Shown in pieces: positions 1,182 to 59,459 of a stretch of 64,000 nucleotides of DNA. Origin of the DNA: Chiloscyllium plagiosum (lineage: Eukaryota); the NCBI RefSeq assembly GCF_004010195.1, contig NC_057758.1, positions 2,454,205-2,518,204 on the forward strand, in the 5' to 3' direction. The position numbers were made by a program, and so were the translations under genes. Numbering within the stretch: the stretch's first letter is position 1; the number at the start of each line of letters is the position of its first letter. The notes under the pieces were generated by a model. It searched no databases, was not told where the DNA came from, and saw only the letters and a list, made by a program, of their open reading frames with translations.

Positions 1182-1341
1182 ATGGAACGGAATGCTTCTG
1201 CCATGGATAGGGATTTCACGTATGGTCTTCACTGGCTCTTTGCGGATCGACCTTGGATAACAGTAGCCCATCGAGTTTCATACGCACTTCAGGTTATACA
1301 GGGCGGCTATTACCCCATGCTTGCGATTTTTGGCATCCCTG
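1182..1341 (+). CDS. GPR139-like class A GPCR, copy 1 (intact), coding exon 1
   Basis: ACAATGG (good Kozak) at 1182 reads MERNASAMDRDF...LQVIQGGYYPMLAIFGIP, then G|GTAAGT donor at 1341/1342 (phase 1). NAS glycosylation sequon present; start of TM1 resembles GPR139 'YYSLLLCLGLP'. An in-frame upstream ATG at 1122 could add 20 aa. Confidence 0.85.
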
Positions 1342-1443
1342 GTAAGTATCCAAAAGCCATGTATAACCTATGTTACAGTTTTTCTTGTAGATATTTATGT
1401 ATCTATAGTCATCGTTATTATAAAACAGATATTTGCACTCCAC

Positions 1444-2364
1444 TGTGAACTAAAACCGAAACACTCAAAGAGGAGCACCTCACCATATGATCTGGAGAAG
1501 GAGCATAAAAAGTGCTTTAGCCTGCTTTTCAGTAACTTCTCGCATTGGAATAAAATTACTCCTTGACACTTTAAAAATAACAAGTAGTAATTCGCTTATC
1601 TGAATCTAAGAGTGAACAGTTACTAAGTCATTAACAAGTAGAATAAATCCCTTCAACTAAATACTGTCCCCAAATAAAACAATATTGTGATGGTATGCTG
1701 TTCCACATCACCCCCGTTCATAAGTATAAAATGAACAACATTTATTCTGTTGAAATTACAGCCAGTATACAAGTCTTCCGGGATGTTCTGTGCTTTCTAC
1801 GCGTTTCTTCTGTCAGGAATACCTTCTCAATCATTTGTTGCTCAGATGGTCTTTTCTTGAAGAGAAAGATGAGGCCGTGAGAGCCAACGATTGACACTGG
1901 ACAGCTGAAGGCCGTTTACTCTGTCGGATGGCAGCTAGCTCTGAGGTCTTTTTACAACTGTCACCTTCTTTTTTACCCTTGATGACATGTCAATATTTCT
2001 TCCAGATGTTGTCAAAACTATCAGAGTTAAATTTAATAGGTTTTTGGTATCAAAGTGCCTTGAGTAAATTGATTGGCTAAATTCTTCGTAAAAACTTCTG
2101 CTTGGCCTGCTAATTGCACGGTCTTTCGATTCAAATGTCTCAGCTTGGGTTATTTGTGTACTTACAGACTTTCACCTGGTGATCACAGGAATCCATTTTC
2201 AATCTCTTAGCACCGACAAAACACCATCTCTCAAATAGATCACGCCATGTTTGCCCCCTTCCCTCCAACCCCCCCCCACCAGCATTTGACAACTACAATT
2301 TTACAAACACCAAGCGCTAACTTCCTGCTTCCCAATCTGCAATTGCTCTACCAACTTCGCAACA
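1444..2364 (-). repeat. 3' LTR of Gypsy element 1
   Basis: Begins TGTG, ends CCAACTTCGCAACA. Aligns by eye with 11666-12886 (e.g. CCTTGATGACAT..CAATATTTCTT; TTTTACAAACACCAA). Confidence 0.7.
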
Positions 2365-3847
2365 ACTCGCACTTGGAAAGGAACGAACCAACATTATGAA
2401 AAGATGGCTTCGTTTAATTTTTCAACTGTAATTCCATTATATTACTAGATCCAAAGCTCAAACCTAGACCTAACTTGCATGTTTTGTTCACATTATATTT
2501 ATTTATAATATTTAACACTACCGTTTCTATCTTATATAAGCATTTTTCTTTTAAATTCAGGATAACCCATCCGTGATCATTTTTTAACGACCCACAATAT
2601 GTACAATATGTCAGGTACATGACAGTACAACGAAATAATCTGATGTACTTATCGTAAATCTTTGCAGAAATATCAAAGGATTGTGATCACTGTACGTAAT
2701 CATCTCTGATACTTTGTTTGCCACGTAAACATTAAAGTGTTGCAAGGCCATTACCAACCTCAATAAGTATTTGTCAATGGCTGAATATATTTCTTACCGT
2801 TGAATACTGCACAATGCAAGACTGAATCTTTCACAGCAATCTCAATCCAGAAATGCCGAATGGACTATCCATCTTGGCCTCCTCCAGCGGTTCCCAATCT
2901 TACTGATACCAGATTTCAGGCAATTCAATTAACTCCCCGTTATTTCAAGAAGGTACTGGATGCTGCAAAGGCTAAGGACCCTGACAACATTCCGGTAATA
3001 ATCCTGAATACTAGTGCTCCAGGATTTGTGTCACCCCATAGCCAGACTGTTCTAGTAAGGTTACAACACTGGCATCTATCTGACAATGTGGAAAATTGCC
3101 CAAGTCACTTTCTGGACATAAGAAGAGGGCAAAGCCAACTCGGTCTATTACCACCCCCATCGGTGTACTGTCGATCATCAGTCCAGTGATGGGAGGAGAC
3201 AGCAACAGTGCCATCAAACAGCACGTACTCAACAACAGCACGTTCAGTGACGCCCGGTTTGGGTTCTGCCAAGGCCACTGAGCTCCTTACCTCATTATAG
3301 CCTTGGTTCAAGCATAGACAAAAGATCAGAATTACAGAAATGAGGTGAGAGTGACAGAACTTAATATCAAGGCTGCATTCCAATGAGTGTGGCATCAAAG
3401 ATTATTCGCAAAACAGGAATCAACGTGTTACAGGGGATCAAATCTCCGGTGGTTAGAGTTTTGCCTGTCACATAGGACGGCAGGCATGGCTGTTGGAGTT
3501 GGGTCATCTTAGCTTCAGGACGTCCCTGCAGACGTTCCTCAGGGTACAGTCCCATGGCCAGCCATCTTCAGCTGCTTCATCAATTACCCAAGATCTGAAG
3601 TCGGAATGCTCACCAGTGATTGCACGTTGTTCAGCAACATTCGTGAAACGTCAGATACTGAAGAAGTCCGTGGAAAATGCAACAATTCTCGACAATATCC
3701 AGACGTGGCCTGACGAGCAGCAAGTAACATTCGTGCCACAAAAATGCCAAGCTATGACCATCAACTATAAGGGATGGTTTGAACACTGGCCTTTGACATT
3801 CAATAGTGTTACCACCTCTGAAGCCCTATCAACATTCTGGGAGTTAT

Positions 3848-4925
3848 TGTTACGAAAGTGTGGGGAATCCTGCTGCCAATTAAACTAAACACGCAGAAAA
3901 TCTCACCTCAGCTCCAGCTCTGTTAAAGTATGAGTGACAGAGAACTCCATAATTCCATTGCTAAAAGAAAATAATACCAACTTTTTTTTAGCTCTAAATG
4001 TGAACATTAAACAATAACTATTCACAGCTCCAACCCACCCGCCTTCTCTTAACTGCTTATTATCTACCTCCAACTCCAAAACAATATGATTAGATTAGAT
4101 TACAGCGTGGAAACAGGCCCTTCAGCCCAAACCGACCCACCGAAGCGCAACCCACCCATGCTCCTACATTTACCCCTTACATAACACTACGGGCAATTTA
4201 GCATGGCCAATTCACCTGACCTGCGCATCTTTGGACTGTGGGAGGAAACCGGAGCACCCGGAGGAAACCCACGCAGACACGGGGAGAACGTGCAAACTCC
4301 ACACAGTCAGTCGCCTAAGGCGGGATTTGAACCCGGGTCTCAGGCGCTGTGAGGCAGCAGTGCTAACCACTGTGCCACCGTGCCACCCTTTAATATGCTG
4401 TTCCAATAAGACACATATTAAAATTGCAGCAACTTAATCTCAAAACCACACAACCGCTGTCATCTTTAGTGTTTGCCTTCTTCTCGCTGAAGGTCTCCCT
4501 GGGTCATCTTTTTTCTTTTTACTGTGAATACGTTTCAAATGAAAAGATGCCTTTGATAGAGAGTGTTTCCTAATGTCTTGGGTTTCTCTCGATTGTAGTT
4601 TCTCTCTCTCCAATAATCAAAATGCCTCCACCTTTATATCCAGAACACGGCATAGTCTCACTGGTTCGATGTTGGCAAAACAATCAACTCAAACTCGGTT
4701 AGGTTTTCGGATTCTGGGGCATAATTTAAACGGATTGGTTAAATTCGAATTGTTGTCAAAACAGCAACTAAAATCCAGTTATCACTGTCACAGCCAAATG
4801 TTACATATTTCAAATTTTCCAGTACAAGCTGGGACTGCCAACTCGTCATATGCACTGCTACTCCCAGTTCAGAGTAGCATTCATTCTATCTGAAAGGCAC
4901 AGTACACGCTTCCAACTTCATAACA
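3848..4925 (-). mobile_element. Solo LTR (Gypsy family) containing an HE1 SINE
   Basis: TGTTAC...CATAACA termini with 4-bp target duplication TTAT (3844-3847 and 4926-4929). Homologous to 59460-60511. Confidence 0.8.
4090..4388 (-). mobile_element. HE1 tRNA-derived SINE
   Basis: Box A TGGCACAGTGG, box B GGTTCAAATCC and (TAATC)n tail on minus; AATATG on both flanks. Confidence 0.9.
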
Positions 4926-6649
4926 TTATCATTGATCATAAACTCATCTGGACTCACCACATAAGCACAGTTGTAAGAGCAGGCTGGAGGCTGGATATCC
5001 GTGGCGACTAGCTTACCTCCTGACTCCTGAAAGCCTGCCCACTATCTCCAAAGCAGAAGTGAGGAGTGCGATGGAATACTCAACAATTGTCTGGATGACC
5101 GCAGCTCTAACAACATGGAAGAAGCTTGACATCATCCTGGACAAAGCTGCCCCTTTGATTGGCACTGAGTTGACAACCATCCACTCCCTCAACAACTGGC
5201 ACTAAGTAACAGCAGTGTGTACTATCTACAAGATGCACTGCAGAAATTCACCAAAACACTTGAGACAACTCCTTCCAAACCCACGGCCACTTGCATCCAG
5301 AAGGGCAAATACAGCAGGCATTTGGGAACACCGCCATCACGTTCAAGTTCCCCTCCAAGTCGCTCACTATCCTGAAGTGGAATTGTATCGGTGTTCCGTT
5401 ACTGTTGCTCGATTAAAATCCTGGAATTCCTTCCTCAGTGGCATTCTGATCAACCTACAGCAAGTGAACTGCAACAGTTCAAGAAGGCAGCTCACCATCA
5501 CCTTCTCAAGGGCAAATATTCACGGGCAAAAAATGCTGGTTTGTCAGCGACTGTCACATCCCAGTGAATGAATAAGTACATTATCGAGTCTATTTTTGGT
5601 TAATAAACTATAGACCTTTCAATTCTTCCTCGTGATCATCATCCTGGAGCAATACAGGTCCAAAAACTGATTGCTTGCGTCAATGGCGACTTTGTAGAGG
5701 TTCAAAAAAATTGGCATGGCTAAAACTGGTGCGTTGATTAACATTGCTTTTTAAATCTCACATGTCTCCTGGCCTTGTTCTGTCTACTGAAATTTTGTGT
5801 TTTTTTTTATGGGTGATGCGCACTTGATTTGCAGTATTTGATAATTGAACTGCTCATGACATCCTTAACTAATTTGACAGTAAAATTGGAACCTTGGTCT
5901 GACTGAAACTCCTTTGGTCGTCCATAATGAGTATATAAAGCAATCAACTACTCCACAATCTTTTTTTTTGGCCTTGCGATTCTGTAATGGAATTGCCTCC
6001 AGAAAACTGGTCGATACATCCATTACGGTAACGTACACCGATTCCCAAATTTTATTTTAAGGAAGAGACCTATACAGTCCATTACAACCCGTGTAAAAGT
6101 TTCTTGAAATGCGCGAATTAATACTAAAGTCGCCGGTTTTATCACCACTTGTGGCTTTCCTTCCATCTGATACGTATGCCATGGACAGGAAAATTAAACC
6201 ATATCTTTATTAATTGTTTTTAATTCAGGCCGATGGAAATGCATCTATACCTTTGTCTTCCCCATTCATGAATGAACTCCTATAGGTATTTAATGTGATT
6301 ACTGCAATGTTTCCTGTCTGTATTCTACTGGCAACACAATCTCGTGTACTTTGACCCATTTCTCATCTGTAATAAGTTGCCAAGATCTCCATTTCTGCCA
6401 TAAGATTTTATCCGTAATGTTTAGGAATACGCTCAGATTCCTTTCTGAGACGGCTTTATGAGATAAATCATTTCCCATCTCATCTTTTTGCTGTAGGACC
6501 GTTAATATTACGGAACTAAACATCTCTAGCTTATCCTCACCTGCATAGGTTTTTCCTTTTCCATCTCAGCAAATATCTCTGCAAAATGAACCTCAACTCA
6601 TTCATCTTTCTTTCTGGTTTTCCCTTCGGTTTGGACTTATTGGTTGTGG

Positions 6650-9600
6650 CACGTTGTCACAAGAAAGTCTCAGAGCGTCGAATAGGGGACTGCCAGAAAG
6701 GTGAATCACTGATTTAAAAACTGACTTTGAGCGTCGGGGACCTCAATTGTTGGTACAGCAGCAGGAAGAGCTGGAGCGTCGACCAGTGAGCTGCCGGGAA
6801 CGTGAATCACTGACTGAAAAACGTACCAAGTGAATAGTCAGACTGCACGCTGAGCAGGAGCAGACCCGAGACTGCTGAGTAAGTGAAGTTGGTGAATATT
6901 TGGATGGCTGTGTTAACTGAAACACTATTTAAATACTGTCGCCCACCCATTCTACTCTAACCAAAACAATATATTCTGTGTGCCGGTTTGGTAAGATAAT
7001 TAGCTTTTCGTTCTTTATTTTTCAATAGTCTGTTTGGAAATTTAGAATAGTGGGAATTGAAGGTAGGGAACTACAATGCTCCTCCTGCAGAATGTGGAAG
7101 GTAAGGGTCGCCAGTAGCATCCGTGCTGACTTCATCTGCAGGAAGTGCACCAAACTCCAACTCCTCACAAATCATGTTCGGCAGCTGGAAATGGAGCTGG
7201 ATGAACTTTGGTTATTTCGTGAGGCAGAGGGTGTTATTAAAAGGAGTTTCAGGTAGGTAATCACACCTCAGGTAAAAGAAAAAAAGCAGATGGGTCACAT
7301 TCAGGGAATGGAAAGGGAAACAGCAGACAGTGCAGGGATCCGTGAGGCCTTTCCCTTCTGCAACAATTTTATAATTTTGAATACTGTCGAGAGGGGCGGT
7401 TCACCAGGGGAAAGCCATGAGGTAAAGGTATCTAGCACAGGGTCTGTCCCTGTTGCTCAGAAGGGAAGTGGGGAGAGGTGCAGTCATTGGAGACTTCATA
7501 GTTAGGTGGACAGATAGGAGATTCTGTGCGAATGAGAGACACTCATGTTTGGTGTGGTGTCTCCCAGGTGTGAGGGTTCGTGATGTTTTTGGGATTGTTG
7601 AGAGTGATCGTAAACATACCCAAATCGTGGTCCATGTAGACACTAACAACACTGGTCGGAAAAGGGATAGATATTTAAGGCAGAAATTCAAGGAGCTAGG
7701 GTAGAGGCTTACAGCTAGAAAAAACACAGTTGTAATCTTTGGTTTATTGCCCGTGCCACGTGCTAGCGAGGAGCCGGCCAGGAGTTCGATCTGGAGGGTC
7801 ATGAGAATTTTGGTGATAGTGACCACAGTTCGGTTATGTTTACTTTAGCGATGTGATTTACTAAAGAATTTGAATCTCTTGTTAAGAGGAATAAAAAGGC
7901 TTATGTTAGGATGAGACGTGAAGGCTAAGTTGTGGCGTTAGAGAGTTGCAAGTTGTCAGGAAAGACCTAAAGAGAGAGTTAAGAAAATCTTGGAGGTGAT
8001 ATGAGAAGGCGTTGTCGGATAGGACTATGGAAAATCTTAAAACTTTCTATCGGTATATAAGGAATAAAAGAAAGACTAAGTAAGATTGGGGCCAATCAAT
8101 CAGAGCTGTAGGAAGTTGTGCATGGACACCAAGTAGATAGTCAAAGCACTAAATGATTATCTTCAGTCAGTATTCACACAATAAAAAGACATTGTGGTCG
8201 AGGAGAATACTGTATTTCTCGCTACTACACTTGATGGAATTAAAGTTCACAAGGAGGAGGTGTTCGCATTTCTGGAAAGAATGAAAATCGATATGTCGTC
8301 TTGCCCGGATATGAGTTATCCCAGGATTTTCTGGGAACTTAAGGAGGAGATTGCAGCATCTTTGCCTTTGATCTTTATGGCGTCAACGGCGGCAGGAATA
8401 GTGCCAGAAGACTGCAGGATGTAAACGTTGCCCCTTGTTCAAGAAAGGGAGTATGGACAACCCTGGCAATTATAGACCAGTGAGCCTTACTTCGGTTGTG
8501 GGTAAAGTGTGGGAAGGATTACAAGATAAAACATTTATACTCATTTGGAAGGGAATAATTTGATTAGCGATAGTTAACACAGTTTTGTGAAGGGTAATTC
8601 GTGCCTCACAAACCTTGTGGAGATTCTTAAGACAGTGGATGAGTGCAAAGCGGTTGATGTGACGTATGTGGATTTCAGACATACATTTGATAAAGTTCCC
8701 CGCGGTAGGCTATTGCTGAAAATGCAGAGACATGGGATTGAGAGTGATTTAGCGGTTTGGACAAAATTGATTGATGGGAAATGTTCATACTGGAGTTAAG
8801 TTACTAGTGGTGTTCTGCAGGGATCTGTTTTGGGGGCACTGTTTTTTGTAATTTTTAGAAATGATCTGTATGATGCTTTAGGACAATAAAATTGCAGATG
8901 ACACTAATGTTGGTGGAGGTTTAGGTTACAGAGGGACATAGGTGAGCTTTTGTGCTGGGTTGAGAGTTGGCAAATGGAGTTTAGTGTGGAAAAGTGTGAG
9001 GTAATTCACTTTGGAAGGAACAAAACAGGAATAAAGAGTACTGGGCTAATGAAAAGATGTTTGGTAGTGTAACTGTGTAGGGAGATTTCAATGTCCATTT
9101 TCAAAGATCTCTGAGAGATGCCACCCAGGTTGATAGGTTTGTTAAGAAGGCAAAATGTCTGTTAGCTTTTCTTGGTCAAGAGATTGAATTCCGGGAACTT
9201 GTGGTCATGCTGCAGCTGTGCAAAGTATTGGGGTATTGCATGCAGTTCTGGTTTCCGCACTACAGGAGGGATGTAGAAGGTTTGGAACGAGTTCAGCGGA
9301 CATTTACTGTGATGTTGCCTGATATTGAGGGAAGGTCTTGAGCAGAAAGCCTAAGGGACTTGAGGCTATTTTCGTCAGAGAGAAGAAGCTTGAGAGGTGG
9401 CTTAATAGTGACATATAAGATAATCAGAGCATTCGATATGGTGGACAGTGAGAGTCTCTTTCCTAAGATGGTGATGGCCCGTATGACGGGACGTAGCTTT
9501 AAATTGAGGGGTTATATATATTGGACAGATGTCAGAGGTAATGTCTTCATTCAGAGAGTAACATGCGTTTGGAATGCCTTGCTGTCAATAGTAGTAGACT

Positions 9601-9750
9601 CGCCAAATTTAAGGACATTTAAATGATCATTGGATAGACGTGAATGAAAATGGAAAATTTTAGGTTAGATGGGCTTCAGATTTTTTTCACAGATCTGCAC
9701 AACATTTAGGGTCAAAGGACCTGTATTGCACTGTAATGTTTTATGTTCCA
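6650..9750 (+). mobile_element. CR1/HER1 LINE with 5' UTR, ORF1 and internally deleted ORF2, inserted in Gypsy element 1
   Basis: ORF1 zinc finger (CSSCRMW...CRKC) and GDS-like esterase segment (VIGDFIVR...CLPG). RT motifs NYRPVSLTS, SCLTNL, YVDF, FDKV. TTCTATG-like 3' end. Confidence 0.88.
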
Positions 9751-11665
9751 TGTTCCAATTTCAGTGCATTTCTTTTCTTGTAACTGCTCAGTTCCCCTGT
9801 TTTCTTCTGGCTTTTCCACGACAATGGGCATCAATCCAACGTGTGGTCAAGCTACACCATTTTCAAGCATAAACTGTATTCCTGGAATAGCCATTTTTTT
9901 CCAATCCTCATGCTATCATTCCCCAGTCTTGATTGTCCATTTTAGCCTTAATTTACACAGGAGAACATTACTCTTTTCTCCGTTTATACCTCAGATTTCC
10001 ACTCTCTCGGGCAATATTTCAGAAGAAGTGCAAATCTTTTAATCTCTTATTATTAGAGACAGACCACCTCCCACAGCTCTCAGTGTTTTAACTTATCTTC
10101 CTCAGTCCCTTGAATTAATCTTACACACACATGTGAAGTCTTTGAATACATCGTGTGCTAACATACTATCCATCCCATAACGAGGCTGTGCATTCTGCTG
10201 CAGCTCCTCGACTTTTCGCAATATTTTCTTCATTATTTTAACTCATCCCATTTGTTCAACGCCTTTTACCACATTCTTTTTCCCAGCGTCTTTCTTAAAC
10301 TGCCACTACTTTGACTTTGTGTGCCCCACCTTATTGCAACGAAAACACGTGAGCTCTTTCATCTCTTTTCCAAACTCCTGGATTTCTTTATTTTTCATTA
10401 TATGTGATAAATTGTTCCCAGTGTGATCTAATTTTTGCTTTTCATTGAAGGATCTTCCTCTTTCCCAATTTCTAGCCCTCACAGAATGAAATTCCATTCT
10501 GAAGCTAGATTTAGATTTGTGCCCTAATACATATTCATCCGCCATCTCTGCAGCTCTTCTCGCTGTTATTACTTCCGGCTCCTCAACATGAGTTCTTATC
10601 ATTTCTGTAGGTAAGTTTGCAAACTCGATAAGCAGAATGATACCTCTAAGAGCCTCATGTGTATTTTCTATCTTTAATGCTCTCACCAATTTATCAGAGT
10701 TGCTTTGTTTAATTCTTTCAAACTTGATATAAGTCTGACTTGGTTCCTTTCATAAATGTTTGATACGTTGTTGATATGCTCTGGTACGAATTCGTAAGTA
10801 TTCAAAATAGCCTTTTTTAAAAAAAACTCATTTTTTTCATTCTCTTCTCATACATCCTGCAAAACATTCATTAGCTCTAACTTTATTGAGATCAACAAAA
10901 CCCACCTTGTCTCTGGCCAGTTCATCTGTGTCGCCAGTTTCTCAAAGAAACGAACAAGTCTTCACGTTCTTATCATCGAATTTTGGTAATATTTGGAGAT
11001 ATCTGTGCAGATCCCTACCAGGCAGTTGGCTACGTTGAGTTTGCTCATCTTTCTTTGAATTCTTTACTTTGACTTTGTCATTTGAATTATTTTTGCTTCA
11101 AGTTCCAACTTCATATTTGCCAACTCGGACATTCTTTCCATTTCTTCTCCTAGGCCCCTCCACTCCTTCACATTTCCTCTCCTTTTAAACGTAATTCAAC
11201 CTGTTTCCATTCCATTTCTTTTTTTCTCCCCTTTTCACTATCTAACGGCAATTGTCTCCTTTACAAATTATTTTTTCCTAACTCCAGTGCATTTTAATGT
11301 TTCTCTGATATACCTAAATGCTTTAACATTTCAACGTTCTTAAAATCCCTGGTTCAAGCCAATTTTAGCCTGCTTGCTAATTCTACAACCGTCGTCGTTT
11401 TCTGTGGTTCTGAACATGTTTTTTTTTTGCAAATTGAGAAGCATCTTCGACACTCAGAACCTATATAACTACGTTAAGAACAACTTTCACACTTTTAAGT
11501 TCACCAATGGCAAGCAACTGAAATTACACAGAGTTTGCACATTTTCTTCAATTTTATTTAAAGATCTAGGATACTCGCCCCCAAGTCTGTTTAAATCTGC
11601 TGTGACCTTCCTTACCCTGATTCTGTTCAAATCTGTTCAAGTCCCAGACTACGAGTCCCCACATT

Positions 11666-12886
11666 TGTGCTGAGGCAAAGACTGACCGCCGTCTGAGAAC
11701 GAAAACTGAAATATTGCAAAAGCAGCACCTCACCCTGTTATCTGCAAAAGGCATGTGAAAGGTGGTGTAGCCTGATTTTCAGCAACAAAATGTGGTTAAA
11801 TGGAACAAATCTCTGACGCCCACTTTAAAATCAATGACTAACAATATAATTATCTCACTCTAACAGTGAAAAACATGACTAAACTATGAACAAACCGTAA
11901 AAATCCCTTCTAACTTACAACAAATCGAAATAAAGCAAGATTCAGATGGTATGATGCTAATAAAAGCAAGGACCACTCGAACAAAATGAATTTAATGTCT
12001 CGAAGCTACAGTTTAGGTACGTGTCTTCCAGACTGTTCTACACCTCTCCGTCGAGGTTTCTGTCAGGAATTGATTCTCTGTCACTGGTACCATTGTTATT
12101 TTGATGGTGCTTTCTTGAAGACATAGGCAAGTCTTTGAGAGCCAGTGATTCCTGTGGAGAGCTGAGGGCCGTCAGCTCTGGCAGATGGCAGCGATCTATG
12201 AGCTCTTGGTCCAACTGTCCAATTCTTTTGTATCCTTGATGACATCAATATTTCTTAAAATAGAAATGATTCTAAGTTATCAAAGCCATAAGATTAATAT
12301 TAAATATGTTTTCGGCTATCTGAGTGCCTCGTTCATATTAATTGGCTCAATTCAAAAGTTTGTTGTGTTGGTAAAAACAGCTGCTTGGTCTGCTAACTGT
12401 ATGGATTTTCGACATAGATTTGCGTCGGCACGGTGGCTCAGTGGATAGCACTTGGGTGACTGTCGGTGTGGAGTTTGCACATTCTCCCCGAGTCTGCGTG
12501 GTTTTTCTCCGGGTGCTCCGGTTTCCTCCCATTGTCCAACGATGTCCACATCAGGTGAATTGCCCGTGGTGCATTAGTCAGAAGGTAATGGGTCTGGGTG
12601 GGTTCCACTTTTGAGGGTCGGTGTGGACTTGTTGGGCCGAAGGCTCTGTTTCCACACTGTAGGGAATCTAATCTACATGTTTCAGTTTGGGTTCTCTCTG
12701 CAATTAAAAAAGACACTTTCAAGCGGCTGCTCACAGATATCTGTTTTAAATTTCTAAGCACCAAAATGGCACCATCTTTTAAAGGAAGCATGCAATGTTT
12801 TCATCCAAGCTCTTCACCATTTTACAAACACCAAATTCGAACTTCCTACCTCTCAATGTGCAATTACTCTACCCAACTTCTCAATA
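11666..12886 (-). repeat. 5' LTR of Gypsy element 1, interrupted by an HE1 SINE
   Basis: Homologous to 1444-2364 and adjacent to the PBS-like motif. Confidence 0.7.
12425..12672 (+). mobile_element. HE1 SINE, internally deleted
   Basis: GGCACGGTGGCTCAGTGG...GGAGTTTGCACATTCTCCCC...GTTTCCACACTGTAGGGAATCTAATCT; box B region missing. Confidence 0.85.
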
Positions 12887-13699
12887 ACGCCGACAATCCC
12901 AGTGGAATATTCTGATTTTTACCCTCTAGTACCAGCCACACAACATCACACCGAACTTCCTCCACTTTGAAAAATAGTCAACATCCCAGTGAGCGTGTTC
13001 GCCCTCTGTGCAACCCTGTCGAACCCATGTTCATTTCTAACCTCATATCTACTTCATTGTTGAGATTTTTGAACAAGTGATCGCTGGCCTTATCGACTGT
13101 GGAAACCCCTGATCTGTACTCTTGCTGAGTCCACGTTACTATTCTGAATCCCGCCCACCTCTCCTCCGAGTTTCAAATCTGACGAGGCACAGCTGATACA
13201 ATCATCCCTGCTCGAAGTGCACTTCATTAGGTCTCCTATGCAACTCAGTGTTGACCTTTTCGTTTCCTTCTTTGGAATTCGCTCCGTGGTTTCGCCTCTC
13301 AATTCGTCCCCCTCCCCTCAACATATTACCACAATTCATTTTTTCTTTCAAAGTTGTAACAAATTCCCAGTTTGACGTGAAGTTGTTTACTTCTGTTCTT
13401 ATCCTTACCCATGATTTTAACTATCACTGTGCCAGAATTGTAGATGCTAGAATAGTGAATATGGGGTCAAAGACTGTGGAGACATCGACATAGGCAGCTG
13501 AATCAAACCATTCTTCCACCTCAAGTAGCTATGGTTCCTGAACAGATTTTTCAATGCAATGAATTCCTGACCTCCAGAATAATTAATTTTCAGACATTGA
13601 TTTTGTATAATAATGAAAAAAAAGCTTCACTTTTTTAAATACTCAGTAACTTTAGCAGAGAGAAAATTAAACACCACGGTAAGCTGATTGGGTCTGTGC

Positions 13700-15487
13700 T
13701 TTCACCCCCCAGAAAAATGTTTTCAGTCCCCATTCAAACAAAAGACAGACAGAAAAGCCATCAGACGCAAAGGACAGCATGCTGGTTCAGCTGTCAGCCC
13801 TACAGCCTCACAGCGCCGGGTTTAACAGTTCAGTCCCAGCGTGTGTACGGTCTGCATATTCTCCACGTATCGGCTTGGATTTCCTTTGGGTGGTGCGGAT
13901 TCTTTCGGCGATTCAAACATATAGATTTAGCCAGGGAAATGCAAATCTATAGGGATAGACTAAGGGGCGTGTGTCTGAACAAAGAACACATCAATAGGAT
14001 TCTGACCTTCAATCATATCTCTGCATCTCATACCTTAGCAGATTTTATTCGATTTTCCCATAGTTGCAGCCTCTCCAGATTAAACAAATCGAGTTTTTCG
14101 AGCCTCTCCTTACAGCTCATCCCCTTTAACGCAAGTAGCATCTTGGAAAACCTCTTGAGCACGCTCTCCAAAATCTCCATATCCTTTCTGCAGCCTGGCC
14201 ACCAGTATTGAATGCACTACACCAAGTGTTGTCGTACGAATGTCTTATAAAGCAGCAAGATAATATCCTGACTCTTGCACTCAATTCCACGACCAATAAA
14301 GGCAAACATGCCATATACGTTCGTGATCACCTTAATTACTTCTGTGGTCACTTTTCGGGAGCTTTGGACTTGAACCTCAAGATATCTCTTTAACATCAAT
14401 GGCTTTCAGGGACCTGCCATTACCTGTATACTTTTCTTTAACGTTTGATCTCACAAAGGGCACAACGTCACACTTGCTTGGATAAAATTGCATCTGCCAT
14501 TTCTCTACCCATATCTGCAACTCATCTATATCCTTTGACAGCATTCTACATTATTTACATCTCCACTGAAATTAGTATGGTCTGCAAACTTATCAACCAA
14601 ATCATTTATAATTTCATCAAAATCATTCGCGTATATCACAAACTGCAGAGGTCCAGCCAAGAAAAACTCCCTTCACCTATTACTGTTCCCTCCGTGGGCA
14701 AGCCAATTCTGAATCCAAGTGGCCAAGTCACAGTGGATCCCGTGCGTCTGAATGTTCCAGATGAGCACATGATGAAGGTCCTGAACGAAAACCTTACTAA
14801 AGTCCATGCTGACAACATACACTGCTTTATCCTCATCGATCACTTTCGTGATCTCGTCGAAAAATTCAATCAAGTCCATCAGACATGATCTGTCTGCACA
14901 AAGCCATGCTGCCTCCCTAATTTGGCCGTGCTTTTCCAAATGCGGGTAAATCCTACCCCTTAAAATTCTCTCCAATAGCTTCCCAATCACTGCTTTGTAT
15001 TTCACTAGGTCGATAGTTTGCTGAATTGTCCGTAATTCCCTTCTAGGACAGAGGTAAAACATCAGCCACTCACACCAGTCCTCTGGGAACACGCCAGTTA
15101 CTAGTGGTGATACAGATATCTTAGTCAGGACCCCAACAAATTCTCTCACTAAATTGGGGTAGAAACCATCGGGCCCAACACCACATCGTTTTTGATCTTA
15201 AAATGGTCTTGCATATGAGCATGCTCCACACTATCATCGTGTCTGACATATCCTTCTCATGGGTGAATGCGGATGCAAAGTATTAATTTAGAACTTAGTC
15301 GACGTTCTCTGCCTCCATGCACAAGTTCACCCCCTTATTCATAAGTGGTACTACTCTTTCCCTAAGCATCCTCTTCTTTTAATTTAGGTTTGGATCGGAT
15401 GCTCTTCAGAGTGTCAGTGTGGTCTTGATTGTCCAAATAGCCTGTTTTTCACACTGTGAGATATCCATGATCGACAAAGTAAATTAA
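13700..15487 (-). mobile_element. Diverged HE1-like SINE (+, ~13770-13980) plus CR1 LINE RT fragments (-, ~13985-15390)
   Basis: Minus ORF 14673-15149 has RSCLMDLIEFF/MDFSKVF. The whole block is absent from the paralogous intron at ~50100. Confidence 0.75.
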
Positions 15488-16270
15488 CAAAACTGGCCAG
15501 ATTCCTTAAATAGCTTTCAGAATCCGTTGGCCCACAGGTATAAATGTGGACGCCACAGTTTTTTTTTAATTTTAGAAATGTTGATAAGGGTCACTGTCTC
15601 AATTCACTTAGGCAAATATAGCAATAGTTCCTATTCAGATTTTTGTTTTGCACTTTGGGCTTTTGGAATTTGTTGTAACATATTAGGCAGAGAGCTTTCT
15701 CTCTTTCACTCTCTCCTTCCTCCCCTCTCTCTCTCTTTATTTCTTCCTTCACCTCTATATGTCTCTTTTCATTTTCATATCTCATTGGAATAACACAACT
15801 CCCTTAATTTGGGAAATGTTTCAATATATTGCATGGTTCCATAGTACAATGGAGCATCTCAATCCATCAAAAATCAAATTTTTTACTCTGCTGAAACCCA
15901 TGTATAGCTGCCGAACTAAAGTATCATCTCAGTGATATTGTGACATTAAACGACCCTCAAAGTGGTCTAATTGTATCTAACAACACTTTATAAAGAACAG
16001 GCAGCAGATACCAAGTTTAGATCACAAACAGACATTTGTAGTTTATTATTAATATGATAACTTTACCAAAGGTAAAGAACAAGGTAATCAAAGTCTTTGA
16101 ATTATACTCAGTCATCTGTGATTGAGTGAGAACAGACACAGACATATTCAAGCGATAAACTGAAAATGAAAATGGGTGTTACAATATGCCAAGGTGTTAC
16201 AACTATAATTTCAACATTACCTACAGCCAAAGTATATAATGTACATGTTATTTCTATGTCTTCCTCACAG

Positions 16271-17812: not shown

Positions 17813-17827
17813 CTTTTGTGAGCACTT

Positions 17828-48349: not shown

Positions 48350-48600
48350 AAAGTTGCAAGGAATGAACTGTCCCTGAATATAATCTAGCAACTCATTCCA
48401 CTCTCCGCTACCTTCCCCCGAGTCCCACCCCCTCTTATTTATTTCTCCATCGCCTCAGTTCACAAGCCTCATTCCTGATGAAGGACTCTTGACCAAAACA
48501 TTGATTCTCCTGCTTCTCTGATTCTGCCTGAGCTGCTGTGGTTTTCCAGCACCCCACTCTCGACTCTGATCTCCAGCGTCTGCATTCTTCATTTTCTTCG
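48350..48600 (+). mobile_element. Penelope-type terminal fragment with degenerate hammerhead motif
   Basis: CTGATGAAGGACTCTTGACCAAAACATTG at ~48476-48503; same family as 50996-51084. Confidence 0.6.
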
Positions 48601-48955: not shown

Positions 48956-49140
48956 TAAACTCAGCCATCACTCGCTTGAAAAAGTAAAACTTGTGAAATG
49001 GTGTAGATATTATTTGAGAATAATAAATATAAAAATGTATTTACGAGTTTGCACACAATTCTACTTGTATTCGCTCTCCAAATCTATTGGGAATGTTTCA
49101 ATTTACATAGATGGATGCAGGCATCACTTGAAAGACAAGA

Positions 49141-52085
49141 CATGTTTCGTACACGCTTCAAGCTATGTAGGGCAGTTATTTTCCACTGCACGCAATTGTT
49201 GACGTCCTTGCTAAGTATCTCGACATAATTCCTGATTCTCTAACCCACAATTACAACCTTTCCTGCAAATATGCATGAAGCTGAAGCCAATATCTACACA
49301 TCCTGTCGAAAATGCTGATTCCTGTCCATTCACGCCTGGCACAAAGCACCACCCCCACCTCCCTCCTCTTCCAAAACTGGCCAACAGCTCAGTGGCAGTG
49401 TTCGCCATATGTGCCACTGCGAACCCAAGTTCATTTTCAGTCTCATACACTCTTCATGGTTGAGACTTTTGAACGTCGGTCTCTGCCCTCGTCTACTGCA
49501 TCTGTGCTCTTGATAGCCCCGCGTTTCTGTTCTGAATCTTGTCTTAGCTCTTCGAATGACAACCTGGATTTGACCAAACCCAAGACAATCATCTCTGTTC
49601 TTACTGCACTCCATTGGTTCTGCTTGGCACCTCAGTTTAAACATTTCCATTCTCTGCATTTGATTTTGCTCTGTGATTTCACCTGTGCAGTTCATTCCAC
49701 TCTCGGCACGATATATTCCCGCTACTACTTTGTTTATTTTCTATCAACCTTGTATGCAATCCCTAGTTTGAATTCAAATTGTTGCTCTCTGCCCTCGTAC
49801 ATACCCATGATTTTAACCATCACTGTGTCAACGCTACAGATGCTAGAATACTGAATGTTGGGCCACAAACAGGTATTTCAACCCCTATATTCACAAATTA
49901 AACCATCAGAGACGCCTAAGGTAATCACTGCAATGGTTCCTGAACGGATTTTTCAATACACTGAATTGCCAACTTTCAAATAATTTAATTCCAGACAACG
50001 ACGAAACGTAATACTGAAAAAATAATGCTGAACTGTTTATTAAACACAAAGTAACTGTAGTGGAGATAAAGTTAACCCCACGGCATCCTGATTAAGTCCA
50101 CGGCAAAACTGGCCAGATTCCTTAAAAGGCTTGTGGATATATTGCTTCAAAGGTATAAATGTAGAGTACTCGGTGATTTTTCTTGTAAATATTGATTAGC
50201 GCCATCGTCTCAATTCACTCAGGCAAAGACAGCAATGCTTCTAATTCAGCTTTCTGCCCTTTGAGATATTTAAAGATGCTATGTAAGGTCAGGGAGGGAA
50301 TTTTCTCGTCCTCTGTATCTCGCTCTTGCTCAGTGACTATTTATCTGATCCTCCACCTCTAGCTCTCCTTCTCTCCATCTTTATCTCTCATTGGAAGAAC
50401 ATGACTTCCAGCTTCATTCTCTATCCTTTCCATCTCCTCTGCCTCCAGACAAAATTCAGTTCTTTACCCAAGTAGTTATAGTAATCCCTGTTATCCCTCT
50501 CCCCTTGTCTCTTGCATTTTTTGGCTTCCTCCCATCACCTCTAGATCCCCTCTCGCTCCTTCTCAATTCTCCCTCTACACTTTCAGCCATGATTCTTGCA
50601 AATATCTTGAATTGAACCAATGTGGCAGACAGCCCCCTTTCTCCCTTCATGAGGGAAATGCTTCACGATATTACATGATGTGTTCGCACAGTGAAAAATC
50701 TCAATCTGTCAACAATCTGCTGAGACCCAAAGCTAGCTGCCAAATTAAATCATTATCACAGTGACATTGCAACATTGAATGGCCCTCAAAATGATCCAAT
50801 TGCTCCTAGCCAGACTTCATAAAGGACTGATGAACAACACAATGTTTAAAACTCCAGCAATAACTTAAAATTTATCAATAATGCTGTAAGTTTCGCAGAG
50901 TAAAGAAAAACAAAACGTGATCAAATTACAGCCTATGATTCGAACCCAATCTTCTTTGATTATAAGCACTGCAAGTAGACGGACACACTTAAGTGCCTGA
51001 GGAAGGGCTTATGCCCGAAACGTCGATTCTCCTGTTCCTTTGATGCTGCCTGACCTGCTGCGCTTTTCCAGCAACACATTTTCAACACTTAAGTGTCAAA
51101 CTGATAAAGAAAAATAAGAGTTGCAATCTACCAGTTTGTGAACTGCATTAATGAATAAAATGAGGGTTTTATAGAATCCTTGAAAAATGTATGTTTTGCG
51201 TAGTGGATGATTGTGATCCTGTCTTAACGAAGCATGACCTCTTCAAGTGCATGAATCTTTATCGGCTGTCCGTGGCAGTGGCAGATCTACTGGTCGTTAC
51301 CTTTGATCTGATATTGATGCACATTCTGATTGTTCCGGGAACAGTTCTTTTTTCATGTTTTCCATCTCTATCTGAAAAATTCATATGGCCCTGCTTAAAG
51401 CAGCCTCTGACTGTTCTGCCTGCTGCTCACTGTTGCTTTCTCATTGGATTGATCTGTGGCCATTTCTGGACAGGAGCTGAAAAACAAATATTTTACACAA
51501 AAAATACCAATTGTAGTACTGGGAGCAGTGATTGTGCTAAACTGTGTAGACAACACATTCTGTTTCTTTCAATGTTAATGAGCAATGAAGGAACAATCTT
51601 GGTTCTGTGTTGTGAAATTACCTACTCTCGGTCTTAGGAGCCCTTGAGTTTCTCTAATACATTCTAACTCCAGGGTTTTCATTTGTACTGATTCTGTTGC
51701 TCGAAAGTTTCACTGTCAGACGCATTTACATCACAAACAGTGCCGGGAGGAGATTCTTGGCTTATAATTGCAGTGAGAGTCTAAGAGACCAGAGGTGGAG
51801 AGACACAGGAGGCCCATTATTTCCGTTGTTACCATCTCATCCAATTGCATTGTCCTATGGGCAACGTTAATGGTGTACTGCATATAGTACTGACTACAGA
51901 AATGGCAATATGCAAATAAGATTTTTTGACATTTTGCACGTGAACTTGGCTTCATGCGATAAATCCTAAGATGCTGCGTTAATTCTGTCTCTTCTGCCGT
52001 GATTCGGAGAATGTTTAGAGAGCAGTTGAAAAAAAAACTCTCAAATCTCCTTTCACTTTAATTAATCAATACATTCAACGATGAT
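49141..52085 (+). pseudogene. GPR139-like GPCR copy 2, unprocessed pseudogene (exon 1 remnant 49141-49210, exon 2 ~51204-52085)
   Basis: 49141-49210 reads HVSYTLQAM*GSYFPLHAIVDVL, aligning to copy 1 RVSYALQVIQGGYYPMLAIFGIP, with TAG at 49168 and the donor mutated to CTAAGT at 49211. Exon 2 aligns to 16271-17170 at DNA level (e.g. GTGGCAGATCTACTGGTCGTTAC, AGACCAGAGGTGGAGAGAC, CCTATGGGCAACGTTAA) with several frameshifts and stops. Confidence 0.9.
50996..51084 (+). mobile_element. 89-bp Penelope-derived insertion with hammerhead ribozyme core
   Basis: Flanked by the 11-bp duplication ACACTTAAGTG (50985-50995 and 51085-51095). Core CTGAGGA-A-GGGC TTAT GCCC-GAAA-CGTC at 50997-51024. Absent from the copy 1 intron. 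Confidence 0.8.
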
Positions 52086-54846
52086 AAGGCGATCTAACAG
52101 GCAGTGTTTAGAATTTTCACAGTCGTAACGTAGACCAAGAGGGATCAGTCGCCATGTAAACAGAGAGATGCTGTGGGGTTACTCTGTGTGTGAAATAGAT
52201 CAAGAAAGAGCTATCATTGTGGTAACAGAGACGGAGTGTGGGGTCACTCAATATGTTAGACAGGTCAGGAGTGAGCTGTCACTGTGGCATAAACGGGGGT
52301 GTGGAGTCACTCGGTGTGCAATATAGATGAGGATGGAGTTGGGGATCCTCTTTGGGCTCAAATCCTATGAAGTACTGCACAATACAATCCACATTAAAGA
52401 ACCCCGGAGTGCTGGGGACGAGTCGAGAGAACAGATTGATTGCCAGTTTGGTTTGTTTTCTGAGATTTTCTGGTTTTATCTTGTGATTATATGGGGTCCC
52501 CAGAGATTCTGATGACGTTTATTTGTAGAGTTAACTTTCGACTATTTCTCCACCACAGGATTTCTGAAGCTTCCAATCAGAAAAAGTGTGAACTCTGGCA
52601 TGCCATTCCAATATGCAATCCTACTCCACCACTCCACATAACCACGGTTGATCTCTCTTTGCCTGCTTTCTCTCCCATTCCTTTTGGTCTCTTTCAACTT
52701 CAGGTCTACTTTTAACTCCTTCTTGATATCATCCTGTGCTCCTCACAGACTGTGGCAGAAATTCACTCATTGGGTGAAGATATTTCTCCTTGTCTCAGTA
52801 CGAAATGACCCCGTATCCTGAGATTGTGACCCCTTGTTCTTGACGCCACGTCATCGATAATTTCCTTCTTGTGTTTGCACCGTCTAGCCCTGTTAGGCTT
52901 TTTATTTGTCTCCATGAGATTCTTCCCTTTAACCTTCTAAACTCCAGTAAATATATTCATGTGCACTCCTGTTTCGCTTCATGTGCCAGTCCAGTCATCC
53001 CAGTTAATCTTTGCTTTGCATCCTTTGCTACATCTTCACCTGCTGTTAACAATGAACAAGTCAAAGAACCTCGGGTGAGACTTGATTTGATCGCGCACGT
53101 TTTGTTTTTTTTTTCTTTTCTGATCACTTAAGTCACTGAACAGCTTCACATGTGGCTGTCAAGGTACGTTTAACATAAGAGCAGGAAAGTATTCGAAACA
53201 AAACAGAATCAGTGATCTGGCAAAGTCCAGGTATAAGCATCAGAAAGGTGTGTTAAATCGTTTAATCTTATCAGAGCCATAAATCTCTGGAATTTATCTC
53301 TCACATGTCTTTACGTGCTCAGATGTACCCAGGATTCCCTTATCATTGATCACTTCTTTTTACTGATTTGTGACTCCAGTCCTGTATATTCCTCTCAACT
53401 ATTGAGTTTCCTCCATTCAGCGCATCTGTCCGGCACTGATGGGCCCACCATTAATTGCCCAAATAACATTGCCCCCTCGGGAAGGTTATGGTGACCTTCC
53501 TTCTTGACATGCTAGGTTCCACGTGCTGTAGGTGGACTCGTTAGGGAGGCACTTTCAGGATTTTGAACAGTGGATGTGAAGGAGAGGCGATGTGTTTCCA
53601 AATCAGGATGAACAGCATCTTAGTGGAGATCTTGCAGGGGAGTAGGGTTCCCATGGATCTATTGTCCTTGTTCTTCTGGATGAGAGTGGTCGTGGGTTTG
53701 CAAGGTGCTTCCTGAGGAACCTTGGTGAATTTCTGCAATGCATGTTGTAGGTAGTACACACTGGATGCTTGTGGATGCGTTGCCAATCAATTGAGCTGCT
53801 TTGTTCGGGATGGTGTCGAAATTCTTCAGTGTTTTTGGAACTGCATTCATCCACAGAAGTGGGAAATATTTTGTACACTTTCATGACTTGTTCCTTATTA
53901 AGCTGAACAGGCTTTTTGAAGTCAGGGTTCAAGTTAATTGCTGCATCACTCCCAGCCCCTGACCTTCTCTTGGAATCACGGAGTCGATATGGCTGGTCCA
54001 GTTCTGCTTCTGATTGCGACATGATTGAAAGTGAAGGGGCGGGCGTTACATTCTCTCTTTTTGTAGATGGCCATTGCCTGGCATTTTTGTGATGCCAAAG
54101 TCCTTGCCACTTGTCAGTCCGAGATATTGTCCATATCTCGTTGCATTTGAACATGGTCTGCTTCATTGTCTGAGTAGTGACAGTGCTGAATATTGTGCAA
54201 TCATCTACAAACGTCCTTGCTTCTGTCCTTATGATAGACGGATGTCATTGATGAAGCAGTTGAAGATGGTTGGGCGTCGGTCTATAGGCGTCGTTCCCTG
54301 AGGAACACCTGTAGAGATATCGTGGACCTGAGATTTCTGATCGCCAATAACCACAACTACCTTCCTGTGTACACGGTATAACTCCAACCGTTGGGTGAGA
54401 TGGGGGTGGGGGGTTATCTAATGATACATATTGACTCTACTTTTCCTCGGGCTCCTTTATGCCAATCAATTTAATGTGGCCTTGCTGTCATGGGACATCA
54501 CTCTCACCTCACTTCTGGTATGCAGTTCTCTTTTCCATGATCGAAGAAAGACTGTAATGACGTCAGCTTGCGTTCACGTGATCTCGTATAGCAGGCTGGG
54601 AAAAAGGCTCAGAGTTTATGGGATTCAAAGCAATTTGGCACATCGGATCCAAAATTGACTAAATGTGGGGAAACAAAGGGTGATAGTTGAAGTGTGTTTT
54701 TTGTCACTGTAAGCCTGTGACCAGTAGCATAGTGTTTGGCCCTTTGCTGTTTGTGGCGTACAGTAATAATGCAGACATGAAAGGTAGAGGGATAAACAGT
54801 GAGGAGGAAACCTTACACGGTAGACTATTATAGACAGGCTGGTCAG

Positions 54847-54945
54847 CGTCCAGAGTGTGGGGTTGGAAAAGCACACAGGTCAGGCAGCATCCAAGGAGTA
54901 GGAAAATCGACGTTTCGGGCATAAGCCCTTCATCAGGAGCATCAG
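54847..54945 (-). mobile_element. Penelope-derived insertion with hammerhead ribozyme core
   Basis: Minus strand CTGATGA-A-GGGC TTAT GCCC-GAAA-CGTC (54936-54909); GCTGGTCAG on both flanks. Confidence 0.78.
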
Positions 54946-55975: not shown

Positions 55976-56924
55976 GCTTCACCTCCGACACTAACAGGGA
56001 ACATCAGCTCAGGAGAGAGGGAGAGCAGAGATCACAATCTGAGAGTAATAGACTGGAACATTGCAACAATTGATTAGAATCTGAAAACAATGGATTAGAA
56101 TATTGCAGCAATAGATATATCTTTCTCCGAAGTTCTTTATATGATTTCTAGAGATGAATATCATTATCAATACCATCACGGATCACATATGTCCTTTTAG
56201 ATTCTTGAGACGGGTTTCCTGGGGAATCTTGGTGGCCCTGGTAAATCTTCCTTCCCAGTTGTTAATCTCTCAAGCCACGTTGAACATAATGCCTGCCCTT
56301 GTCTCTCATGACTGTGTATAACTCCTTTGGAGTGTCCATTTCCAGTAAGGTATTCTGCAATCCACTTCGCTTCTGCCTGATTAAATATATTAGGTAAATG
56401 ACAGCTTCACTTTAACACAATGCTCCCACTTCTCTGAGATGCAAACGAACTCTCAGCATCCTCCGTGCACTGCTTGGTTCAGAGTTCAGTTCTAACTCTA
56501 CCTTTTGCTTAGCCTAACTGTGTATCAAACTTTATATGTCTTTGGGAAAACCAGACACAATAAAAAGCAGTCCCTGGGTTGCAGACATGTTCTGTTCAGG
56601 AACTTGTTCCCAGATCAATTTGTACGCAATGCAGGATAGTATGAAAGGACAGATCCTACGTACAGGAATGCTGCAACATCGACTCTTTAATATTATGTCT
56701 TTGCAGGGATCGTGTTCATACGTGTGAGCCTTCAAAAGTCAGACGTTCTTAAATCGGGCACCCACTGTATTGCAATTCGCTGCTGATCGTCCTTCCAGTT
56801 GAACACTTACATTAATGCTCCACCTATACTCGAATCTAAACCGCAACACCATCGCCTTGTCTGCTCGCAAGGCCTCCATTTTAATATTCTCATTCATGTA
56901 ATTGGATCTGTCCACCGTAATACT

Positions 56925-57330: not shown

Positions 57331-57404
57331 GTATATTAGCAGAAGGGTTTACCGCCGTGTCATAACATTCTCCTTCCTTTTTTCTGACATTCATTTACCC
57401 CATC

Positions 57405-57797
57405 ATAGATTAGATTACTTACAGTGTGAAAACAGGCTCTTCGGCCCAACAAGTCCACACCGACCCTTCGAAGAACAACCAACCAAACCCCTACATTTAC
57501 CTAACACAAGGGGCAATTTAGCATAGCCAATTCACCTAACCTGCACATTTTGGGACTGTGGGAGGAAACCGGAGCACCCGGAGGAAACCCACGCAGACAC
57601 GGGGAGAATGTGCAAACTCCACACAGCCTGAGGAGCTGTGAGACAGCAGTGCTAACCATTGTGCCACCGTGCCGGGAGGAAACCGGAGCACCCGGAGGAA
57701 ACCCACGCAGACACGGGGAGAATGTGCAAACTCCACACAGACAGTTGCCTGAGGAGCTGTGAGACAGCAGTGCTAACCATTGTGCCACCGTGCCGCC
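57405..57797 (-). mobile_element. HE1 SINE with tandemly duplicated, box-B-deleted 5' half
   Basis: Near-identical units at ~57561-57674 and ~57675-57797. Confidence 0.9.
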
Positions 57798-57953
57798 TAC
57801 AATCTTGGGGTAGCACCAGAAATGATGATTTCAATTCATGTCAGGATGAACCAACACATTTGTCAATCTTAACGACTTCTTCACAACACTTAATATTTCA
57901 CAAAGCCTGGTGCATTTCAGACTGTATTTCCATACCTCACAGTTACATTAGTC

Positions 57954-58194
57954 ACCAAAAGAGAAAATGCTGGAACATCTCAGCAGGTCTGGCAGCATCT
58001 ATAAGGAGAGAAAAGAGCTGACGTTTCGAGTCTAACTGACCTTTTGTCAAAGCTGACAAAGCTTTGACAAAGGGTCAGTTAGACTCGAAACGTCAGCTCT
58101 TTTCTCTGCTTACAGATGCTGCCAGACCTGCTGAGATTTTCCAGCATTTTCTCTTTTGGTTGCAAATTCCAGCATCCGCAGTAATTTGCTTTTA
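57954..58194. mobile_element. Palindromic Penelope-type insertion in exon 2 of copy 3
   Basis: 100-bp arms at 57954-58053 and 58061-58160 with a 7-bp spacer. Target duplication TACATTAGTCAC (57944-57955) / TACATTAGTTAC (58195-58206). Confidence 0.85.
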
Positions 58195-59459
58195 TACATT
58201 AGTTACTATTGGTATCCTGTTTCTCAACAAATGTGGCCTTTCAAAGTGTGTAACTCGTTTCCTGGTGGTCATGGCAGCGGTGGTTTTGCTGATTACTGTC
58301 CTCAACCTGATATTAAGACACATTTGAATTGATTTTGAACACTTTTATTTTGAGAAGTCCATTCCCGCGTGCATTATCCATGATATTATGCTTTCTGCAG
58401 CCACTGACTGCTCTGTCTGGTTCACTGATCGAGTTGTGGCCACTTGTTGCCATAAACTGAAAAGTAAATATTGCACTGAGCCCCGGCTATTGGTATTCTG
58501 GGAACAGTGACTGCACTGAGCTGTTTAAAGAATATTTTCTGATATTTTATGTTAATGCATTATTATCAATTGCAGAACATTCAGTGGTTTTGCAAATTAA
58601 CAGCCGCCACTAACGAGTCTCCAGTCTGGGTCACAGTCGAGTTCCTCCATTACAGTCTAACCACATCTCTTCAATTTCTCCTGATTCTCCTGCTCAATAT
58701 TTTCACAGTCAGATACATTTTAGTGACCAGTAGAGCCCGGGGTGGGGGGGGGACTCAGTGCTCCCAGTAATGGAGAAAATACCAAGGACACGGAGATGGA
58801 GAACCAAAGAAAATCAGTAATTTTGCTGTATGTGATCTCGGCCTGTTTCGTTTTTTTTTAATGCTCAACATTAATGGTTCACTCAATGTGGTACCGCGTG
58901 TATTAGATGTGGTTTGATTCTGTCTGGATAGATCATCTTGTGAGGGAATTGGGCTCCTCAGTGGCTGAACAAACATTGTACTTTATAGAGCGACACAGTC
59001 TAAGTTCAGACAGCAGCTGAGGGTTGTGGTCGTTTTGCATTTGAAGATCAAAATGCCTGACACAGATACAGAGAGAGGGATCAAGGGACACAGGGACAGA
59101 AATGAGAAGGGTCGTGGAGAGATAGAGAGATGGATAGGGACAGACAAGGGGCACAGCAAACAAGCGATCGAGACAGAAATAGTAACAAACAGAACCAGAG
59201 AGGCAGAGAAGAGTGAATGAAAGAGAACAGAGGGGCATTGAAAATAAACACAGAGAGTGAGGGAGGCTGCATAGAATAATGAGCAAGGCGAGCAACAAAG
59301 AATTGATTGACGGTGGGGGGGACGAGACAAGAGTTAAGTAATGAGAGAGAGAGAGAAATTGAAAAACTATGTAAGCAAATGTGAAGAGAGAGTGACAGAG
59401 GAAGGATGCAGTAGGAAGAGGTGGGGTACTCAATGTCAGAAAAAGAGAAAGAGAACAAG

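Follow-up and report, generated by a model that had tools for sequence, protein, structure and literature searches.

Organization of the receptor gene cluster

The subject of this report is a 64,000-nucleotide stretch of Chiloscyllium plagiosum DNA (contig NC_057758.1, positions 2,454,205 to 2,518,204 of the forward strand), hereafter the window, and a receptor gene within it, designated gene A. The window is AT-rich DNA of the vertebrate type, dense in pieces of long and short interspersed nuclear elements (LINEs and SINEs). Five pieces of related receptor genes were identified, one intact (A) and four dead (pseudogenes B and C, relics D and E). The predicted product of gene A, 349 amino acids (53+1+295) encoded by two coding exons, is intact and is a class A (rhodopsin-like) G protein-coupled receptor (GPCR). 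The features are as follows.

1182 to 1341, plus strand: gene A exon 1, ATG at 1182, 53 codons plus one base, encoding the N-terminus and the first half of transmembrane segment 1 (TM1); GT donor at 1342
1342 to 16270, plus strand: gene A intron, 14.9 kb, phase 1, inside TM1; AG acceptor before 16271
16271 to 17160, plus strand: gene A exon 2, encoding TM1 to helix 8 in an open frame; TAA at 17158-17160
26402 to 26823, minus strand: relic D, inverted and decayed TM5 to helix 8 part of another paralogue (E = 1e-15)
44820 to 44986 (start approximate), plus strand: relic E, orphan decayed exon 1 (E = 0.007); phase-1 GT donor at 44987
49050 to 49210 (start approximate), plus strand: pseudogene B exon 1, with an in-frame stop and the donor changed from GT to CT
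51200 to 52071, plus strand: pseudogene B exon 2, 77% DNA identity to A, with 8 stops, 10 to 11 frameshifts and a ratio of nonsynonymous to synonymous substitution rates (dN/dS) of about 1.1
56042 to 56240, plus strand: pseudogene C exon 1, with stops and a 21-bp N-terminal repeat unit; GT donor at 56241
57947 to 58167, no strand: palindrome of 220 bp with 108-nt arms, 94% complementary, at the expected splice acceptor of C
58190 to 59030, plus strand: pseudogene C exon 2, 68% identity to A, with 3 to 5 stops and at least 5 frameshifts (the counts vary with the alignment settings)

Exon 2 of gene A matched the Pfam family 7tm_1 (E = 3e-15), and the structure predicted by AlphaFold2 was a seven-helix bundle with a mean confidence score (pLDDT) of 87. 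In addition to the 7tm_1 match and the seven helices, the class A features include N1.50, D2.50, the DRx motif and the cysteines of the disulfide between TM3 and extracellular loop 2.

The large intron of gene A was compared with the 2-kb intron of B, which aligned to A 1275-1444 and then to A 12937-16270. The segments 1342-1444 and 12937-16270 of the A intron are thus homologous to the B intron, and an insertion of about 11.5 kb, rich in repeats, lies between them. The B intron is collinear with both ends, so that the A intron corresponds to the B intron plus about 11.5 kb of repeats. An origin of exons 1 and 2 from different genes, brought together across the 15-kb intron, was rejected on this and the following grounds. 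No further exon 1 was found inside the gene A intron; for an exon-1 relic at 11.0-11.7 kb or 12.7-12.9 kb, the score was 50 against a maximum of 84 for shuffled sequence. A match between 1443-2129 and 11693-12412 within the intron was identified as a repeat.

A single DNA contig from a public run spans 16210-17158 with 11 substitutions and no gaps, but is not independent support for the frame, since the assembly may have been built from that run. Five of the 11 substitutions over gene A were assignable, and none creates a stop. An AATAAA hexamer (17155-17160) overlaps the stop codon and a LINE fragment begins about 40 bases downstream; the 3' untranslated region of gene A may be very short. 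No tandem array with a 26-bp unit was found in the window at a TRF score of 40; of the DNA upstream of gene A, the window covers 1.2 kb.

The initial annotation of this DNA described a tandem birth-and-death cluster of three same-strand paralogues with identical architecture, one intact and two independently disabled. The three copies A, B and C are real and their architecture is homologous, but the splice sites of B and C are damaged, relic D lies on the minus strand, and relics D and E had been missed. The frame of A is open while those of B and C carry lesions; since no stop position is common to B and C, these two copies died separately. With one intact and four dead pieces in the window, the description as tandem birth-and-death is borne out.

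No exon 2 for relic E was found within the window. The DNA upstream of this relic matches that upstream of gene C (78% over 46 nt, E = 2e-4). At 45352-46222, 370 bases downstream of relic E, inverted arms of 92 nt (96%) surround a LINE-type fragment (687 nt) that matches zf-RVT weakly, and this element may mark the event that removed the exon 2. The palindrome at C is built from a repeat that recurs at 48470-48597, 50996-51089, 54843-54938 and 62505-62632, and may represent a MITE-like element (miniature inverted-repeat transposable element) or SINE pieces arranged head to head. The extracellular N-terminus of the receptors contains a tandem unit of 7 or 14 residues, often with a possible N-glycosylation site, and its copy number differs between paralogues (56042-56116; proteins P0004-P0012 and P0028). 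The right end of the window (62500-64000) is occupied by a long degenerate purine-rich GA tract with a GC skew of 0.46 and an AT skew of 0.46.

Selection on gene A

The mode of evolution of gene A was examined by comparison of three sequences (A, B and C), with the decayed copy C as the outgroup. A branch codon model of 279 codons put dN/dS at 0.18 on the A branch, which differs from 1 (p = 0.003); the estimates for B and C were 1.12 and 0.59. When the changes were polarised by C, the numbers of synonymous and nonsynonymous changes were 19:18 on the A branch and 18:62 on the B branch (Fisher p = 0.003). At a similar synonymous distance, the frame of A stayed open while B collected about 18 lesions. 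As estimated by these tests, gene A is under purifying selection and its tandem duplicate B decays neutrally.

Gene A differs from the family at 26 of 149 conserved columns, the median among its 120 best matches being 4, and its end branch in the tree is long (0.44, compared with 0.14-0.22 in its neighbours). Half of the unusual residues (13 of 26) are common to B, and these departures therefore predate the duplication that gave rise to A and B. A young pseudogene whose frame is still open was considered as an explanation for gene A, and was rejected by the dN/dS value and by the substitutions shared with B. Judged from its codons, gene A is thus a working gene within a divergent subfamily.

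Size and range of the family

By protein search, 1315 clusters at 90% identity were obtained among 2415 candidates. Within the best 120 of these clusters, 118 carried a species name; these belonged without exception to sharks or skates, 11 species in all, with Heptranchias alone contributing 41. Of the 120, 117 were labelled as probable or putative GPR139; the highest identity to gene A among the matches listed was 61%. At the 50%-identity level, 96 clusters had E < 1e-30; names were checked for 23 clusters at this level, and 22 were chondrichthyan (sharks, skates, rays and elephant shark) and one was unnamed. A total of 510 contigs from a single DNA run of C. plagiosum aligned to exon 2 at 80% or higher, a number that is not a copy number but is in line with many copies. 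Gene A is accordingly placed by its matches in a very large, lineage-restricted chondrichthyan family, present in sharks, rays and a chimaera, as the proposal of a lineage expansion had anticipated.

A bamboo shark model (proteins P0181, P0394 and P0395) contains a coiled-coil/RING-type (TRIM-like) N-terminal part joined to a receptor of this family. It is probably an artefact of annotation in which adjacent genes were fused; some family members would then lie beside TRIM genes.

Relation to GPR139 and GPR139-like orphans

When the family profile was compared with solved structures, GPR139 was the best match (E = 4e-29), followed by the neurotensin receptor (8e-21), in agreement with the initial naming of the cluster as GPR139-like. 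The fold search was uninformative on rank: its 500 class A matches scored much alike, and GPR139 came 12th. Gene A itself showed 22% identity and 32 bits to human GPR139, whereas GPR139-like proteins of coelacanth, teleosts and salamander scored higher, at 63-85 bits. Grouping as the GPR139 orthologue had been named in advance as one outcome that would speak against the proposed family; by these scores gene A is not its 1:1 orthologue.

Two sets of conserved GPR139-like genes were found near the shark family. One, the P0246-type clade (proteins P0243, P0246 and P0275-P0392), is distributed from sharks to turtles and squamates and has its own single orthologue in three sharks; no bird or mammal was found among the best 120 of its 145 matches. 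In this clade, Trp 6.48 is replaced by Ser or Cys, and R6.51, D/E3.29 and E2.61 are invariant. By accession numbering, P0246 may correspond to GPR210B. Two P0246-type models are annotated as fused to TMEM183A, which suggests that TMEM183A is the neighbour gene of this orphan.

The other set, of the P0252 type (proteins P0252 and P0404-P0423), is found in frogs, salamanders, a caecilian and sturgeon. A search with this gene gave 25 matches, consisting of 20 amphibian clusters (about one per species) and one sturgeon protein, followed by four members of the shark family. No published name matching this gene was found.

In a tree of 47 rows, among which canonical GPR139 and GPR142 were not included, the shark family was joined to the amphibian and sturgeon clade with support of 94/94. 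The P0246 clade formed a separate group (100/99) together with its own shark members, with gene A outside. In agreement with this arrangement, 52 of 70 family rows gave their best score against the amphibian and sturgeon clade. The single gene of amphibians and sturgeon is likely to be the sister of the shark family, as far as the tree and scores indicate.

Predicted ligand pocket

The variability of the predicted ligand pocket was estimated for 27 positions, taken from a standard list, with helix numbering assigned in the analysis. Rows with less than 85% coverage were dropped, leaving 70 of 87 family rows; 115 of 120 rows of the P0246 clade and 21 amphibian and sturgeon rows were used for comparison. 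In the broad shark family, mean entropy was 2.62 bits in the pocket versus 1.48 bits at other helix positions (p = 2e-7). The order was reversed in the amphibian and sturgeon clade (0.17 versus 0.54 bits, p = 4e-5), and the P0246 clade showed no pocket excess (0.74 versus 0.95 bits). The inner loops are constant in the shark family, as are Trp 6.48, D2.50 and the two disulfide cysteines. Among 120 near relatives of gene A, the outer loops were more variable than the inner ones (1.81 versus 0.80 bits, p = 2e-6); the extracellular divergence noted at first sight of the cluster was thus recovered, and the pocket proved to be variable too. The entropy reversal is the strongest sign in these sequences that points to ligand diversification, and it fits external and internal ligands alike.

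Activation of GPR139 by Trp and Phe is described as requiring F109, H187, W241 and N271 (PMC5430874). In the profile alignment, gene A has N, Q, W and C at these positions, and the subfamily to which it belongs is characterized by Asn 3.33, Gln 5.42 and Cys 7.39. Because only one of the four residues is kept, amino-acid sensing in the manner of GPR139, which had been suggested for this receptor, is not supported for gene A by the alignment. The best 120 relatives of gene A have an aromatic residue at 3.33 (116/120), His 5.42 (113/120) and Trp 6.48 (120/120), while across the broad shark family variability at the Trp/Phe site ranks with the highest. In the amphibian gene the four positions are occupied by F, Q, W and N, and 6.51 is a lysine; its invariant pocket comprises Y3.32, F3.33, Y3.37, K6.51, K6.55 and N7.39.

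Expression of the family

In a poly(A) single-cell run labelled as the same species (tissue not given), 20 reads among 13 million records fell on conserved blocks of exon 2, and the loose ends of these reads continue as family-type sequence. Paralogues of gene A are therefore present in this run. Nine paralogue contigs were recovered from a further run, of which the RNA status is a guess.

Functional interpretation

Taken together, the size of the family, its turnover and its variable pocket lead us to favour a chemosensory repertoire as the function of the gene A family, with a probability of roughly 0.45 on the sequence evidence. More tentatively, cartilaginous fishes could own a seventh vertebrate chemoreceptor family derived from a GPR139-like orphan that was left single in amphibians and sturgeon. 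The origin would be one GPR139-like orphan gene, surviving as a single conserved copy in these animals. Tandem duplication would supply new copies, most of which would die, and the survivors would diverge at pocket positions. Each copy might then bind a different set of dissolved molecules through its variable pocket, while the common, conserved inner face would be kept for shared G protein signalling.

Several points weigh against this interpretation. Gene A is an atypical member of the family, as judged from the 26 of 149 conserved columns changed; sequences of different species are pooled in the broad family set, some of which may be pseudogenes or faulty models, and the pocket comparison depends on the standard list of positions and on our own numbering. 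The node of the shark family itself is weak (85/32), and the alternative of the P0246 clade as its closest relative was not rejected (approximately unbiased test, p = 0.074). With respect to expression, none of the 20 reads matched gene A at 95% or higher in the 2% of the single-cell run searched, and no 'GPR' entry is present in the main text of a catshark sensory-organ study (PMC11979771). According to the same main text, most catshark OR genes are expressed highest outside the nose, so that a family resembling a repertoire is not necessarily sensory.

Variable pockets and birth-and-death turnover are equally typical of immune receptors. The family might thus consist of immune or barrier sensors on leukocytes or epithelia, detecting peptides and small molecules derived from microbes or damage, for which the formyl-peptide receptors (FPRs) and MRGPRs of mammals serve as the model. 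All the sequence evidence for the chemosensory reading fits this alternative equally, and catshark ORs are expressed in the spleen (main text of PMC11979771). MAS1-related receptors are noted as absent from cartilaginous fishes (PMC8455134), leaving their role open there. A published immune single-cell atlas of the bamboo shark (PMC11372145) speaks weakly against this alternative. In the portion of its cluster-marker table that was covered, genes are given with descriptions and 46 'coupled receptor' entries occur across the sheets for the different species, yet 'receptor 139' and GPR139 have no entry; single paralogues would be sparse in such a table. We consider an immune or barrier function less likely than a chemosensory one, yet a serious competitor.

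It is improbable that the family reflects mostly drift, that is, repeat-driven unequal crossing-over in which a few copies are kept for the dosage of a shared function and the pocket varies by relaxed constraint. The death of four of the five pieces in a region dense in LINEs and SINEs would be expected from such a process, as would the long end branch of gene A (0.44) and its 26 departures from conserved columns. The open frame of A with dN/dS of 0.18, against about 18 lesions in B, argues otherwise, and 13 of the 26 departures predate the duplication. Relaxed constraint alone would not raise the variability of the pocket with W6.48, D2.50, the cysteines and the inner loops fixed, and the family has been retained in sharks, rays and a chimaera alike.

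That these are receptors for internal neuropeptides or aromatic amino acids, working like GPR139 in brain, gut or gonad, is very doubtful, even though the family profile matches GPR139 best among solved structures (E = 4e-29), the near subfamily retains aromatic 3.33, His 5.42 and Trp 6.48, and the amphibian sister retains Phe 3.33, Trp 6.48, Asn 7.39 and a basic 6.51, for gene A has Asn, Gln, Trp and Cys at the Trp/Phe site, these positions are highly variable across the family, and a fixed internal ligand should not call for a large diversified repertoire.

Significance

The genes were already known in the sense that they sit in RefSeq under an automatic name; the selection test on gene A, the single-copy sister and the pocket contrast are new here. 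In open-access full text no description of this expansion was found, although subscription papers or supplements may hold one, and no match to the family was obtained in 12 of the 24 supplementary files of PMC8455134. The earlier view of the family as functionally uncharacterised agrees with this result.

Cartilaginous fishes have been described as relatively poor in GPCRs (PMC8455134), and only 65 chemoreceptor genes are known in the catshark (PMC6368271). The presence of more than a thousand clusters under one automatic label contradicts the former statement, whatever the function of the family, and the expanded family may explain why so few chemoreceptor genes are known despite the large olfactory organs of sharks. 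If the proposal of a seventh chemoreceptor family is true, this family would outnumber all known smell and taste receptors of cartilaginous fishes combined, and would overturn the view of sharks as poor in GPCRs with a small chemosensory repertoire. The single-copy amphibian sister, with its fixed GPR139-like pocket, offers an entry to the ancestral ligand and tissue in Xenopus or axolotl, and existing catshark tissue RNA-seq could decide between sensory and immune expression without new animals.

Comparison with known receptor systems

The closest known system is GPR139, grouped here with its relative GPR142. The gene A family shares with human GPR139 (PDB 7vug and 9m42) the class A fold, Trp 6.48 and an N-x-x-x-Y end of helix 7 instead of NPxxY. 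High conservation of GPR139 throughout the vertebrates has been described (PMC12208981), whereas the shark family comprises more than a thousand clusters with a variable pocket. The RefSeq models of sharks, rays and chimaera named 'probable G-protein coupled receptor 139' belong to the same family as gene A; this name is automatic and conceals paralogues of a separate lineage.

Non-mammalian GPR139-like orphans, GPR210A, GPR210B and an unnamed third set, have been reported (Rinne et al. 2019, PMC6504862), the two names being given to genes of bony vertebrates, and an 'Orphan 139-like' entry is found in a table of PMC5207463. The shark family falls among genes of the GPR210A/GPR210B type, but the published orphans are listed as genes of few copies, unlike the shark family; no shark or cartilaginous fish is mentioned in the text of PMC6504862.

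Gene A lies outside the classical chemoreceptor families OR, TAAR, V1R/ORA, V2R, T1R and T2R; Pfam yields only 7tm_1 (E up to 0.1), and its nearest relatives are GPR139 and the peptide receptors. The shark family differs from all of these chemoreceptor families, and from MRGPR and FPR, in its root within the class A tree and in its two coding exons. Its mode of evolution resembles that of chemoreceptor repertoires and of the MRGPR and FPR expansions, which are likewise characterized by tandem clusters, frequent pseudogenes and a variable pocket set in a conserved frame.

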